7,277 nucleotides of DNA from a virus (IMGVR_UViG_2778261154_000009:1-7277), one strand, 5' to 3'. Positions 2,122 to 6,500 are shown, numbered from the stretch's first letter. Notes: generated by a model not told the origin, from the letters alone. Program-made: numbers and translations.

Positions 2122-3072
2122 CTACCAGTTCAGTAACCTGGGGTTGCTGTAAGCCTCCTTAAAAGCCGCTTTAATGTGACTTTTATTCAGGGATGTGCCT
2201 GCACCTTTTGCCGCCAGCCACGCATGATTCAGTGTGTGAGTTAATACACGCAATCCCCCGGGCTTTTCGGCTACCCTCATCAGCAGGTCCAGCTCATCTT
2301 CCTGTGTTACTCCCCATGCTTTGGCTACAGCCATCACATCGGTCTTTTTTACTTTGCGCAGTTGTTTTGTCATGGCAAAACGGCTGAACAGACGGGCCAG
2401 TTCATCAGTCCCACGACGGGTGGCATCCGCCATCTGTTTCGGGTTGCCAATTAAAACCATCCCCACGCCAGTGGCATCCTGAATGGCGCGTAATTGCTCC
2501 AGACCATCCACACTTAAGTGATCAGCTTCATCAATAATCAGAAGGGGGTTAACACGGCCACTGGTTTCTTTACCACCACCCAGTTTTCTGCGAATGGCGC
2601 GGGTTATATTCCCCTTATTTCTTCCCGGATTATTAATTTCCAGCGCATATGCTATTTCAAGGAGGCATTCCGTTACGCTCGAATGTGCCGGAGCAAGAGT
2701 CACCATCCAGGCATTAGCTGTCCTGCGACAATATTCCCGGGCAGCAAAGGTTTTTCCGACACCCGGTACGCCAACAACAACACTGATAATCCCGAGTGAG
2801 CGCACTGTTTTAAACAGTTCATGCAAATCACAAAATGTCTGGGTCTTCACAACGCCGGGGGTACCTGACAAATTCTGCCCTTTCTGCCAGACCCGATACC
2901 ATTCCTGTAATTTGTCATACATGCCTTCAACATTGCCTCTGTACTTTCCTTTACGAAGATCAGAAAGTGTTGCCGGAGACATTCCGGCTTCATCAGCAAT
3001 ATCTTCCTGAGACTTGTCGCCCTCGTTAATCAAAGCGTTAATAGTGTTGAAAACATCATCAATATCAGTCAT
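2122..3072 (-). CDS. B: Mu B-like transposition ATPase (target DNA activator), 316 aa
   Basis: Walker A GVPGVGKT and Walker B LLIIDEADHL; N-terminal HTH-like segment (DEAGMSPATLSDLRKGKY); SD GAGGAA 6-7 nt upstream of ATG 3072-3070; located directly downstream of the transposase gene. Confidence 0.9.
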   Translation of the reverse strand: MTDIDDVFNTINALINEGDKSQEDIADEAGMSPATLSDLRKGKYRGNVEGMYDKLQEWYRVWQKGQNLSGTPGVVKTQTFCDLHELFKTVRSLGIISVVVGVPGVGKTFAAREYCRRTANAWMVTLAPAHSSVTECLLEIAYALEINNPGRNKGNITRAIRRKLGGGKETSGRVNPLLIIDEADHLSVDGLEQLRAIQDATGVGMVLIGNPKQMADATRRGTDELARLFSRFAMTKQLRKVKKTDVMAVAKAWGVTQEDELDLLMRVAEKPGGLRVLTHTLNHAWLAAKGAGTSLNKSHIKAAFKEAYSNPRLLNW

Positions 3073-3147: not shown

Positions 3148-5244
3148 TCAGGCCAGCGGATCATCTTCTTCCTGCATGGCAAAAAGTTTTTGCATCCCCA
3201 GCCGGAAATCGCGTTCAAATTCTTCGTCATGCTCTTCTTCATATTTCGGTTGCTGAACTGCCACCACATTACCAACCGGGCGATAAACATTACTCAGCCA
3301 GGGTTCAGCCTGTTTGTGTTCCAGAATCTGAATACCTTCATCTTCAGCATCACGAATTTTTTCCTCAGCGCGTTTGCGCATTCCTTTAATACGCTGCTGT
3401 TGTTTGTGATATTCAGCACTGACAGCAAAGGCTGCGCGTTTATTGCCGTTCCATATCGCCTCACAGATAAAGCTGCCGTCCTTGCGACGTACCGTAATTC
3501 GCTCGGCGTCATGAATGTCATAACTGATAAGCACTTTGCGACCGTGTTCGTCACGCAACTCCGGCGCGTAGTAAATATTGTTCAGCCACTGAATTTCGCA
3601 GCGTCTTACCGGTCGTTCCACCATTGGGCGGAACATGTCGCGCAGCTCAAGATCACTCAGCCACTCAATTTCGGTGTCTTCTTCTGCCAGGCGTTTTTTT
3701 CTGAACTCTGTCGGGCTGTAATGCCGTCCGTTCGGTTTCATCGGCAGCTCAGAATGCGGGCGGTTGTTGTACCATTCCACGCCTTCACGAATAGCCTCAA
3801 TAAGCTCCGCCCACGATGGCAGCTCGCGCATTGCCGCTTTCTGGCGGTCGTTCAGAGGCTTGTCCTGTTGCAGGGCGTTAAACGCTGAACGCAGATCACG
3901 GTTAAGTACACGCAACGATTCCCGGTCAGCACCCTTGCCAAAATAGGTGCGATACCTCCTGGCTATACGCATCGGCAGTGTCCGGTTCAGGCGTTCAATA
4001 ATGCCGCGTCCCTGTGGATTACCGGCAATACCGGTAGGGTGTTTAATCCCCAGGCGTGGCAGAATACCCACGACCTCTTTGTCCAGCATGTCAGCCGTTT
4101 CACCGGAACCGTTATCCGAGTAATACAGGAACGGTTTTCCGTGGTTGCGAATGCCGTGCTGTATCGCACCGGCAACGGCGAACACGTTTTCGGCAAGGTC
4201 AAGACTCCAGCCAACAACAAACCGTGTTCCACCATCGATCACAAACGTGACTTCCGGTGAGAATGGACGCCCGTGGATCGGATGCGCACATTTCAGCTTC
4301 ATACCGTGACCGTCACCAATCCAGACATAATTCACCGGCATAGCTGTCCAGTCGCGGCGGGTGAATCCTTCAAGCTGACGGTATTCACTGCCGGTAACGC
4401 GCCCTTTTTGTTTCACCACTTCCGGCAGTTTTTTCATGGCATACCGGACAACATCATAGGAAGGCATCACCTCCAGCATGTACGGTTCGTCCGCATGGCG
4501 ACGCTGCCATTCTGCGACAAAATCCTCGTAGGCTTCTGACATGGGTCTGCCGTTCACCTGGCGATACTGCGCCAGAAATTCAGGCAGCCAGCTGATTTCT
4601 TCCGGTTTTATTTCGTCGCGTTTTCCCGGTGCCAGTAACAGCAGCCGTTCGGCGGCGTTCTGCGACTGGTTGTATTTCAGAACCCACTGGTAAAGTGGAT
4701 CGCGGCTGATAGTACGATTAGCGCCACGTTTTGCATTGGCGTTAACTGCGGCCTGTTGCAGGCGCTCCGGCAGCTCACCTTTACGGGCTTTTTCAACAAG
4801 AAAGTTAATGGCTTTCAGTCGCCCGAGGTTACCGGCGCTTTCCAGCTTCAGCACTTCCACCACCAGCGCAGCTCTTGCTTCAGATACCCGGCGCTGGTTT
4901 TCGGTCAGCGCATTCAGGCGTTCTTCCATCAGTTGTGGAGAACCGCGATATGCTTCGATTGCCTGGACAGCGTCAGGATTGCGTGTTTTTCTGGTAACAG
5001 CTTTCACTTCAGAAACATTGTTCTCTGTAGCCACCAGCTGTTCCACATAGCGTTCACGCAGTGCCTTTCGTGTTATTTCAGGCAGACAATCAATGTGGTA
5101 CTCAATGGCTTTTGTGCCTTCCCGACGGCGACTAACGTCACCAAGATCACGAGAAAAACGCTGTAACGCCTGTCGGATGCCTTTTGTGGTGGCTGGCATT
5201 CCTGGTACGCCGAGCAGGTCATTTACGGTAACGTACGACTGCAT
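3148..5244 (-). CDS. A: Mu A-like DDE transposase, 698 aa from ATG 5244
   Basis: N-terminus (LLGVPGMPATTKGIRQ...GTKAIEYHIDCLPEITRKAL) resembles the MuA enhancer-binding winged-helix domain. DDE core candidates WIGDGHG, YYSDNGSG and GIIERLNR. Start at 5244 chosen for SD AGGAAGG; the 721-aa track ORF start at 5313 has no SD and overlaps ner. Confidence 0.9.
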   Translation of the reverse strand: MQSYVTVNDLLGVPGMPATTKGIRQALQRFSRDLGDVSRRREGTKAIEYHIDCLPEITRKALRERYVEQLVATENNVSEVKAVTRKTRNPDAVQAIEAYRGSPQLMEERLNALTENQRRVSEARAALVVEVLKLESAGNLGRLKAINFLVEKARKGELPERLQQAAVNANAKRGANRTISRDPLYQWVLKYNQSQNAAERLLLLAPGKRDEIKPEEISWLPEFLAQYRQVNGRPMSEAYEDFVAEWQRRHADEPYMLEVMPSYDVVRYAMKKLPEVVKQKGRVTGSEYRQLEGFTRRDWTAMPVNYVWIGDGHGMKLKCAHPIHGRPFSPEVTFVIDGGTRFVVGWSLDLAENVFAVAGAIQHGIRNHGKPFLYYSDNGSGETADMLDKEVVGILPRLGIKHPTGIAGNPQGRGIIERLNRTLPMRIARRYRTYFGKGADRESLRVLNRDLRSAFNALQQDKPLNDRQKAAMRELPSWAELIEAIREGVEWYNNRPHSELPMKPNGRHYSPTEFRKKRLAEEDTEIEWLSDLELRDMFRPMVERPVRRCEIQWLNNIYYAPELRDEHGRKVLISYDIHDAERITVRRKDGSFICEAIWNGNKRAAFAVSAEYHKQQQRIKGMRKRAEEKIRDAEDEGIQILEHKQAEPWLSNVYRPVGNVVAVQQPKYEEEHDEEFERDFRLGMQKLFAMQEEDDPLA

Positions 5245-5245
5245 A

Positions 5246-5497
5246 TCACGACACCTTCCTGATAAATCCATCGTTACGATACCGGCTGGGCCAGATGATT
5301 TCTGGCGGTACACCTATAGCGTCAGAAATTACGCGTTCGTATTTTTTGTTTGGTGTGCGAACTACCGCTTTCAGTGAATCCTGAGCATAACCAGCATGGA
5401 GTGAAAGCTCCCGGAAGGAAGACCACCCGTTATCTTTGAGCGCCAGCTGAATCTTCAGCGAAGGCCAATCGCGGTCACTATCTTCTCTTTGTCTCAT
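5246..5497 (-). CDS. ner: Ner-like DNA-binding protein (Mu Ner / Nlp family), 83 aa
   Basis: Contains the Ner/Nlp signature (DWPSLKIQLALKDNGWSSFRELS...PEIIWPSRY); SD AAGGAAAG before ATG 5497-5495; stop TGA is 1 nt from the A start (TGATATG). Confidence 0.85.
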   Translation of the reverse strand: MRQREDSDRDWPSLKIQLALKDNGWSSFRELSLHAGYAQDSLKAVVRTPNKKYERVISDAIGVPPEIIWPSRYRNDGFIRKVS

Positions 5498-5526
5498 CTT
5501 TCCTTTAACCTACAAAATTACCCGCG

Positions 5527-5548
5527 CGGATATCCGGTCGGATATCCG
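5527..5548. promoter_or_regulatory. Two tandem copies of the perfect 10-bp palindrome CGGATATCCG: candidate operator sites
   Basis: Exact copies at 5527-5536 and 5539-5548, 12 bp start-to-start, in the ner-repressor intergenic region just downstream of the candidate early promoter. Confidence 0.5.
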
Positions 5549-5557
5549 TATGGATAA

Positions 5558-5586
5558 AGATTAAGATACCAAAGATTCCTTGTAAA
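5558..5586 (-). promoter_or_regulatory. Candidate early promoter (Pe-like) for ner-A-B
   Basis: Minus-strand TTTACA (5586-5581), 17-bp spacer, TAATCT (5563-5558). Predicted start lies just upstream of the palindromes. Sequence-pattern call only. Confidence 0.35.
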
Positions 5587-5629
5587 GGGTTCTTTGGTGT
5601 TTTTATGGTTTATTTTTTAATTTCATTAT

Positions 5630-5642
5630 TTATCAATGAATT
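5630..5642. promoter_or_regulatory. IHF consensus match (WATCAANNNNTTR)
   Basis: TATCAATGAATTA at 5630-5642, preceded by an A/T-rich tract, between the divergent repressor and ner starts. Mu has an IHF site in its operator region. Confidence 0.4.
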
Positions 5643-5661
5643 AGATAGAAAGGAACCAAGA

Positions 5662-6225
5662 ATGAGAAAAGCACCCCAAGGTTCTTTTCCTGCCGATGGA
5701 AAAGAACCGATTATCGAAAGAATCTTTAGGTTAGTAGAACGATACCCTTCAAGAAATGCGGCTGCTCGGGCATGGGGGATCAATGAAGGCACTTTAAAAA
5801 ATTATTACAACAGGCGGGATTACGCACCGATACCACGCCCGCATCAGTTAAAAAAGATAGCAGAAAGCGAAAATGTTACCTTGGAATGGCTCATGACGGG
5901 AGAGGGTGATGTTGAACTAAAAGATTCCAAAGAACCCAAAAAAGAGAATGCGGATAATGTTGATGCTCAAATTCTAATGTTCTTGTCATTTCTTAAACCA
6001 CAAGAAAAACAACAAGTAGCTGATGTTCTTGGGAGAAAAGGAGCGGAGCAATTACTCATTCTTCTGGATGAGCACATCCAAGAGTTGCACGCTCTAGTTG
6101 GAGTTCGTAGAGCCATAGCGTTAAGCCTTGGTAATTTGCCAGACGAAAAGGTTAGAGAGATTTACGCGTTGTCCGAAGCTAAGGGCGATCACTTAAATCT
6201 ACCTCAGAAAGCAGCCAGCGCATAA
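5662..6225 (+). CDS. c: Prophage repressor (c-like): XRE-type HTH N-terminus with a Mu-repressor-like C-terminal region, 187 aa
   Basis: SD AAAGGAA 8-9 nt upstream of ATG 5662; the track ORF start at 5605 lacks an SD. N-terminus has an XRE/Cro-CI HTH pattern (SRNAAARAWGINEGTLKNYY...LEWLMTGEG). C-terminal segment resembles the Mu Repc C-terminal region as I recall it. Divergent from ner, in the Mu c position. Confidence 0.7.
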   Translation: MRKAPQGSFPADGKEPIIERIFRLVERYPSRNAAARAWGINEGTLKNYYNRRDYAPIPRPHQLKKIAESENVTLEWLMTGEGDVELKDSKEPKKENADNVDAQILMFLSFLKPQEKQQVADVLGRKGAEQLLILLDEHIQELHALVGVRRAIALSLGNLPDEKVREIYALSEAKGDHLNLPQKAASA

Positions 6226-6348
6226 CCCAGTGCAAGTGCCTAGCTGTGCTAAAATTACATTGGTTTTGGCGCTTGCACCCATCAGCGCTATAATAAACAC
6301 CTGAATCGTTTTTGAACGGTCTTTAAAGGCTATTGTAAGAACCTGTGA

Positions 6349-6483
6349 GTTATCTTGAATGTTTTATTGATATCGAACCGTTTAACATTTTTGGACTCGC
6401 TTTATCTTGAAAACCTTGAGTTCCTAACTTGTTGATTCCAATCTATTCCCGTCTTTTTTAATCTCTTCCCGGTTATCTTGAAT
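6349..6483. repeat. Three direct repeats of TTATCTTGAA in the prophage terminal non-coding region: candidate transposase end-binding sites (attL L1-L3-like)
   Basis: Core TTATCTTGAA at 6350-6359, 6402-6411 and 6473-6482; the outer two copies are identical over 12 bp (GTTATCTTGAAT). Read inward, each contains TTCAAGATAA, which carries the TTCA element of the Mu end-site consensus. Confidence 0.5.
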
Positions 6484-6500
6484 AAATTACCTAGTCATAA

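Follow-up and report, generated by a model that had tools for sequence, protein, structure and literature searches.

Predicted separate operators for a Ner-like protein and a CI-type immunity repressor in the control region of a Mu-like Escherichia coli prophage

The 164 bp between the divergent ner-like and immunity repressor genes of a Mu-like Escherichia coli prophage, together with the sites at its borders, are read here as a lysis/lysogeny switch of the Mu type that has two separate operator sets. The first set is an array of GATAWC hexamers that includes twin palindromes and is probably the operator of the Ner-like (Cro-like) protein. The second set consists of half-sites of the form AAAGNACC / GGTNCTTT, which would be the operators of the immunity repressor. 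We assign a probability of roughly 0.6 to this reading, both for the switch with two operator sets and for Ner as the protein that binds the array. The anatomy of the region, its conservation, the linkage of its modules and the co-variation of sites with proteins were observed directly. The switch would be an ordinary one of a known type, with newly proposed operator sequences. All positions are counted along the window, by which we mean the whole analysed stretch of 7,277 nucleotides.

The window contains, in flipped orientation, the left end of a Mu-like prophage that lies within E. coli astE. The astE homology resumes at position 6500 in nearly all of the 5,426 complete E. coli genomes compared, two of which contain the same prophage; strains FDAARGOS_943 and VL40 are among its carriers. 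Because uninterrupted astE homology starts at 6500, the prophage end is at 6499. The control region of about 165 bp is 838-1001 bp from that end, and the initial annotation, which had put it at about 840-1000 bp, was right on this point. It had also described a divergent early control region of the Mu type, and Pfam matches on both strands agree. The minus strand encodes Gam (306-830), MuB (2122-3072) and the Mu transposase A (3148-5313, true start probably 5244), whose DNA-binding domain matches Pfam PF02316 (HTH_Tnp_Mu_1, E 5e-7). The first gene of this early operon is ner-like (5246-5497, minus strand) and encodes 83 amino acids that match Pfam HTH_35 (E 1e-13). Among PDB structures the protein matched Mu Ner (1NEQ/1NER, E 6e-7) and EnrR (7F9H). 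The ner stop codon overlaps the probable transposase start (MQSY..., 5244-5248), which suggests translational coupling. Divergent from ner-A-B-gam, on the plus strand, is the gene of a CI-type immunity repressor of 187 amino acids (5662-6225, from ATG 5662). It belongs to PHROG 3037 ('transcriptional repressor', E 1e-43) and has a weak match to Pfam Phage_CI_repr. Its reading frame is open for a further 19 codons 5' of this ATG, back to an ATG at 5605 (5605-5661). The repressor starts of relatives vary, and those of loci L002 and L003 lie 3' of the inverted repeat at 5667-5688 that is described below; given these differing start points, 5662 is a tentative repressor start.

The prophage terminus reads ...GTCA and is followed by astE. 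Just inside it are three exact copies of TTATCTTGAA (6350-6359, 6402-6411 and 6473-6482) spaced by 52 and 71 bp, which are probably end-binding sites of the transposase. The end repeats of relatives differ (GGTATCAAA, AGTGCAGAA or AGTCCAGAA) and have comparable spacings of roughly 40-75 bp; Pseudomonas phage VW-6B was left out of this comparison, as its record stops about 50 bp past the repressor gene. TTATCTTGAA resembles GTTATC, which might have hinted at binding by the transposase; this idea was dropped, since loci with a common array have different end repeats. A second exact IHF consensus, AATCAACAAGTTA, is found on the minus strand at 6425-6437, between end repeats 2 and 3, and may serve left-end bending. 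Additionally, an 11-nt inverted repeat, GTGCAAGTGCC / GGCGCTTGCAC (6230-6240 / 6268-6278; 91% complementary, 27-nt loop), lies 5 bp past the repressor stop and lacks a T-run; it could function in termination or as a binding site.

For comparison, about 40 distinct homologous control regions were gathered from E. coli, Shigella, Serratia, Pantoea, Izhakiella, a Pseudomonas phage and metagenomes. The loci come from E. coli prophages, Pseudomonas phage VW-6B, bacterial genomes, viral contigs and metagenomes, and one related Mu-like element sits inside Stx-converting phages. VW-6B is a direct relative within the clade, with 68.8% DNA identity across the region, and our literature search found no mention of it. 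Conservation was read from two alignments, one of 11 and one of 20 loci. A scan of viral contigs for the exact pattern GATAACCNNNNGGTTATCC returned 108 matches, from which 80 loci were retained; three of them adjoin a Ner gene, all on contigs already in the set of loci. When relatives of the Ner of locus L113 were sought in viral contigs, L113 alone was returned, and a metagenome scan added L226 and L227 as loci of the same type.

The initial annotation had proposed an early promoter on the minus strand, TTTACA-17-TAATCT, and this element is present at 5586-5558. Here named Pe, it has its -35 hexamer TTTACA at 5586-5581, a spacer of 17 bp and its -10 hexamer TAATCT at 5563-5558, and the two hexamers match the sigma-70 consensus at 8/12 positions. 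A consensus promoter scan of 5300-5800 reported no promoter at its threshold of 9/12, so the assignment rests on positional conservation. The best sigma-70-like match within the 130 nt upstream of ner falls at the Pe position in 36 of 37 distinct loci, and some relatives reach 10/12 (TTGACA-17-TATTCT). Its position thus supports a real early promoter, with a transcript that would start near 5551. A promoter of the repressor gene was also sought in the window and none was identified. A weak pair on the plus strand, TTGTCT-18-CAAAAT (5489-5494 / 5513-5518), scores 8/12, faces Pe across the array and overlaps the first codons of ner; that it is the repressor promoter is speculation. The Mu repressor promoter faces its early promoter in a parallel way.

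The space between the Pe -10 (5558-5563) and the ner ATG (5497) contains the array. Twin exact palindromes had been claimed here, and they are indeed present: CGGATATCCG occurs at 5527-5536 and 5539-5548 and nowhere else in the window, 12 bp from start to start and with a gap of 2 bp. Allowing up to one mismatch, 0.17 matches are expected by chance in the 7277-base window, and 3/200 shuffles reach two. The palindromes are the central two of four GATAWC hexamers that follow a 12-bp phase across 5516-5559, an array that would span about -8 to +36 of the early transcript. Unit a (AATTACCC, 5516-5523) is 12 bp from unit b and is the weakest; across the alignments its form is AGTTAYCC (GTTAYC in relatives), its T31, T32 and A33 are invariant in alignment A1, and in the ner sense it reads GATAAC in most relatives. 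Units b (5528-5535) and c (5540-5547) both read GGATATCC and form the cores of the first and the second palindrome. Unit d (GGATAAAG, 5552-5559) is 12 bp from unit c, has a conserved ATAAA and overlaps both the -10 and the predicted early start. The core of unit b is invariant in the 11 and the 20 aligned loci, and the conserved forms of units b and c are GGATAWCC (5528-5535) and GGWTATCC (5540-5547). Outside the E. coli lineages, units b and c read GGATAACC and GGTTATCC and are an inverted pair, not two self-palindromes. The ner-sense order of the units is TTTATC, GATAAC, GTTATC, GATAAC, so that their orientation alternates. The hexamers are N6-spaced, the array centre at 5537.5 is 40 bp from the ner ATG, and the distance from the end of the Pe -10 to unit c is 10-12 nt across loci.

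Ner of Mu and of D108 is a Cro-like negative regulator of early and repressor transcription. Both phages have dyads (Mu 1029-1058, D108 996-1025) placed as the window array is, between the early start and the ner ATG. The Mu dyad, AGCTAGCTAAGT-ttttac-ACTTAGTTAAAT, has the form CTAAGT-N6-ACTTAG and lies just past the early start, upstream of ner. The D108 dyad, CCGTGAGCTAC-N8-GTAGCTCACGG, is centred 40 bp upstream of the ner ATG. We take these dyads to be the footprinted Ner operators (Tolias and DuBow, 1986; Kukolj et al., 1989). The window resembles them in that the adjacent gene belongs to the HTH_35/Ner family, in that its hexamer centres are 12 bp apart in a hexamer-N6-hexamer arrangement as in Mu, and in that its array has the same 40-bp distance to ner as the D108 operator. 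It differs in its hexamer, which is GATAWC instead of CTAAGT (Mu) or CCGTGAGCTAC (D108), and in the number of units, which here are four, in phase and alternating in orientation, where Mu and D108 have a single inverted pair. The proteins differ as well, with an identity of only 33% between the window protein and Mu Ner and with recognition helices that read DSLKAVVRT in the former and TTLANALER in the latter.

Three natural immunity swaps were found among the loci (the window vs. L002, L046 vs. L048/L053, and L070 vs. L071). Within each pair the Ner proteins share 97.6-100% identity and 0-4 differences separate the 62-nt stretches upstream of ner, whereas the repressors are 44-65% identical and the type of half-site changes. 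Since ner and the array remain together across exchanges of the repressor, the array belongs to the ner module and not to the immunity module. Between the window and L002, similarity is lost at 5559/5560, where unit d gives way to the -10, and this marks the point of recombination between immunity and ner-transposase modules. The type of repeat also tracks the Ner recognition helix. Every Ner with a D(S/T)L(K/R) helix has GATAAC-type repeats upstream. This includes L113, L226 and L227, which have an S24 CI-like repressor, a Ner-like gene and a CII-like gene, and are without an adjacent Mu transposase. The Ner helix of this type is DSLKTALRT, and two AGATAACCC direct repeats lie between a TAATAT -10 and the Ner start; the support from this lambdoid context comes from one small lineage. 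In these loci (L113 950-1222, L226 and L227) the Ner-family gene occupies the Cro position of a lambdoid-type immunity region. Locus L105 has a Mu-like Ner helix (STLKNALAR) and the repeats CTTAC/CTTAG/ATTAG, and L228/L229, whose helix is (N/T)TL, have CTTAG/CTAAG. In this comparison, which is qualitative and ignores phylogeny, D(S/T)L(K/R) helices thus go with G(A/G/T)TAA repeats and (S/T/N)TL helices with CTTAG/CTAAG repeats as in Mu. We infer that the array follows the recognition helix of Ner and not the transposase.

Other proteins have been considered for the array. The initial annotation regarded the palindromes as operators of the immunity repressor, where a helix-turn-helix dimer would block early transcription just downstream of the promoter. 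In its favour, a dimeric helix-turn-helix protein would fit a palindrome, and the two copies span positions of about +4 to +25 in the early transcript. The N-terminal helix-turn-helix segment of the repressor, RYPSRSAAARAWGI, is, like the palindromes, conserved within the clade, and it could recognise a conserved site. We nevertheless consider this assignment quite unlikely. The palindromes stay unchanged with ner through all three swaps, in which the repressor and its half-site type do change, and they sit at the place of the Mu/D108 Ner operators. Moreover, it is AAAGNACC that co-varies with the repressor helix and overlaps the -35 and the spacer, where repression is expected, and GATAAC repeats adjoin a Ner gene even when it is paired with an unrelated S24-type repressor. 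It is also unlikely, though slightly less so, that the N-terminal winged-helix domain of the transposase binds the array as a transposition enhancer (internal activation sequence). The transposase has the Mu DNA-binding domain PF02316, its N-terminal segment is conserved in the clade, and the array segregates with the ner-A module in 3/3 swaps, so that conservation alone would fit the transposase too. The array is also about 0.95 kb from the prophage end, a distance that resembles that of the Mu enhancer, which likewise lies about 0.95 kb from its prophage end. A BLASTP comparison of the repressor with the transposase N-terminus found no similarity, so Mu-style shared operator/enhancer sites are not expected here and an enhancer need not coincide with the repressor operators. 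Against an enhancer stand the GATAAC repeats that accompany a similar Ner without an adjacent transposase, and L105, where the first 70 amino acids of the transposase are 51-57% identical to those of clade members, inside the clade's own range, yet the CTTAG repeats fit the Mu-like Ner helix. In addition, the putative recognition segment of the transposase varies (KGIREAL, QGLRWML, QGVRYSI) while the GATAAC units are kept, loci with a shared array have widely differing transposase end repeats, and the enhancer of Mu lies beyond the early promoter, toward the repressor, instead of between promoter and ner. Decidedly improbable, in our view, is an array that serves both the oligomerisation of a monomeric Ner and, as an enhancer, the N-terminal domain of the transposase. 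If this were true, Ner and not the repressor would gate transposition as well as transcription. With a repressor unrelated to the transposase, the competition of the two for one operator/enhancer, as in Mu, would be lost.

The inverted pair might instead act as RNA, as a stem-loop at the 5' end of the early transcript that affects mRNA stability or ner translation. The sense RNA can form a 9-bp hairpin of -14.9 kcal/mol, 82.5% of cells are paired across 20 loci, and a central A/T position changes jointly on both sides. The fold is ordinary for its composition (z = -1.45; 14/200 shuffles fold as well), co-variation is seen in 1/8 pairs while 5/8 depart by mispairs only, and it is the sequence itself that is conserved, beyond pairing. 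Units a and d share the 12-bp phase and the alternation of orientation but have nothing to pair with, the direct repeats of L113-type loci cannot form a hairpin, and there is no Rfam match. An RNA element is therefore very improbable. The lowest probability, close to negligible, goes to host-factor sites such as those of DnaA. In the ner sense unit d reads TTATCCATA, an 8/9 match to TTATCCACA, which we take to be the DnaA box, and TTATCCGCA is found at unit b in several relatives. However, the aligned loci do not keep the CACA portion of the box, for which reason unit d was rejected as a DnaA box, and GATAWC is the core that is conserved. The repeats also change with the Ner helix across subfamilies, and we know of no DnaA-box pattern with a strict 12-bp phase and alternating orientation.

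Ner, our preferred ligand of the array, leaves the immunity repressor to a separate motif, AAAGNACC / GGTNCTTT, which recurs across 5571-5708. At Pe, AAAGATTCC (5571-5579, in the promoter spacer) and GGTTCTTTG (5588-5596) flank the -35 and make up a candidate operator at 5571-5596, proposed by comparison. The half-site AAAGGAACC (5649-5657, plus strand) lies over the ribosome-binding site of the repressor, and its AAAGGAAC is conserved in most aligned loci. Another candidate operator, AAAAGCACC-ccaa-GGTTCTTTT (5667-5688), covers repressor codons 2-9 and is kept in all aligned loci; this inverted repeat with its 4-bp spacer is kept even in L002 and L003, where it is non-coding. The half-site AAAAGAACC (5700-5708, plus strand) falls on the codons for K-E-P and is invariant in 11/11 loci. 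These codons are AAA and GAA for K and E in 20/20 distinct loci, compared with 61% and 58% elsewhere in the same genes, and such fixed codon use points to a constraint on the DNA itself. All four exact copies of AAAGAACC in the window are within 5588-5936, with 1.08 expected window-wide. In 17/17 loci the sequence of the promoter-spacer half-site tracks the recognition helix of the repressor: it is GGTTCTTTT in 12/12 loci with an NYY-type helix, TL(K/Q/N)NYY, and GGTA(C/T)TTTT or GTGTTTTT in 5/5 loci of the SYF type, TL(N/Q)SYF. This co-variation is clean at the promoter and mixed at the repressor-proximal operator, where L011 combines an SYF-type helix with GAAC-type sites. From this pattern the AAAGNACC / GGTNCTTT half-sites are predicted to be the immunity-repressor operators. 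Inside the repressor coding sequence, AAAGATTCCAAAGAACC (5921-5937) repeats both variants of the early-promoter half-site; it may be an extra operator or chance.

The initial annotation further listed a perfect IHF match and three AAGAT direct repeats that could be Ner sites. The exact match to WATCAANNNNTTR stands, and its coordinates are 5631-5643 in place of 5630-5642. This plus-strand consensus, TATCAATGAATTA, follows the T-rich tract tttattttttaatttcattatt and lies between the two clusters of half-sites. The window contains three WATCAANNNNTTR matches, with 0.39 expected. The best IHF match is at the same offset in most of 33 distinct loci (exact in 6, with at most one mismatch in 22), and the family consensus at this position is WTTCAATTRGATA. 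IHF binding at 5631-5643 is plausible in this phage, and the conserved element at this position could also be part of a promoter or a further GATA-type site. A GATA-type element, AGATAGAA (5643-5650), is located 3' of the IHF-like core, just before the ribosome site of the repressor. Its counterpart in relatives is GGATAAA (L003 and L004, at the aligned position), which resembles unit d, and the element could be a further Ner site that controls repressor expression. The three AAGAT repeats are present, as AAGATT (5557-5562), AAGATA (5563-5568) and AAGATT (5572-5577). They are not conserved, and the proposal that they are Ner sites is not supported; they come about where unit d, the degenerate half-site AAAGATTCC and the -10 overlap (TAATCT has the complement AGATTA).

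The layout of the region can be set beside that of the Mu operator/enhancer. Mu has the order O1-IHF-O2, and an IHF-consensus site likewise lies between the site clusters of the window. The region is about 0.85-1.0 kb from the left end, as is O1-O2-O3 of Mu, the putative repressor sites at 5571-5708 overlap Pe and extend toward the repressor gene as in Mu, and the intergenic space is close in length to the 169 bp of Mu. In contrast to Mu, whose repressor c is of the winged-helix type, the window encodes a repressor of the CI helix-turn-helix type (PHROG 3037), and the half-sites reach about 45 bp into the repressor coding sequence. EnrR, a xenogeneic regulator of Edwardsiella that belongs to the Ner family, is a monomer, two of which pack side by side on the continuous palindrome CTATAG (PMC9023278). 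Its DNA complex (PDB 7F9H) and the window share the protein family and a short AT-centred palindrome, which is GATATC in the window. The base-contacting Arg47 and Arg55 of EnrR are Asp40 and Thr48 in the window protein, so the EnrR binding mode is not simply transferable; EnrR is, moreover, a global AT-rich binder and not a phage switch protein. In the Pseudomonas Mu-like phages B3 and Fc02 a CI-type repc diverges from ner, and the promoters pC and pE are facing or overlapping; for Fc02 transcripts were mapped and promoters predicted, and the passages on these mention no operators (PMC9936078). The window shares with the B3/Fc02 immunity regions, as described there, the CI-type repressor gene divergent from ner, and differs in that operator sites are proposed for it, from comparison alone.

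The switch might then work as follows, where the pairing of proteins with sites, the number of molecules bound, the start of transcription and the directions of regulation are deduced from comparison of sequences. Leftward sigma-70 transcription from Pe would express ner, A, B and gam. The CI-type repressor would shut off this promoter by binding the pair at 5571-5596, which brackets the -35 and fills the spacer, and its binding to the sites at 5649-5708, over its own ribosome site and first codons, would allow autoregulation. A bend site of the IHF type at 5631-5643 would be placed between both clusters of repressor sites. Once made, the Ner-like protein would assemble on the array and turn down early transcription, and it might also block the repressor transcript where this crosses the region.

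The general design of such a switch is already known from Mu and D108. What is added is a map of predicted operators for a clade of Mu-like prophages that is widespread yet unstudied; its members occur in E. coli, Shigella, Serratia, Pantoea and Pseudomonas, and as Mu-like insertions within Stx-converting phages. The map separates the predicted sites of the immunity repressor from the predicted sites of the Cro-like Ner. Additionally, it leads to a proposed recognition code for the Ner family, in which D(S/T)L(K/R) helices correspond to GNTAA repeats and (S/T/N)TL helices to CTAAG repeats. This code could aid the prediction of targets for chromosomal Ner-like regulators such as Nlp/SfsB, EnrR and CdeR.
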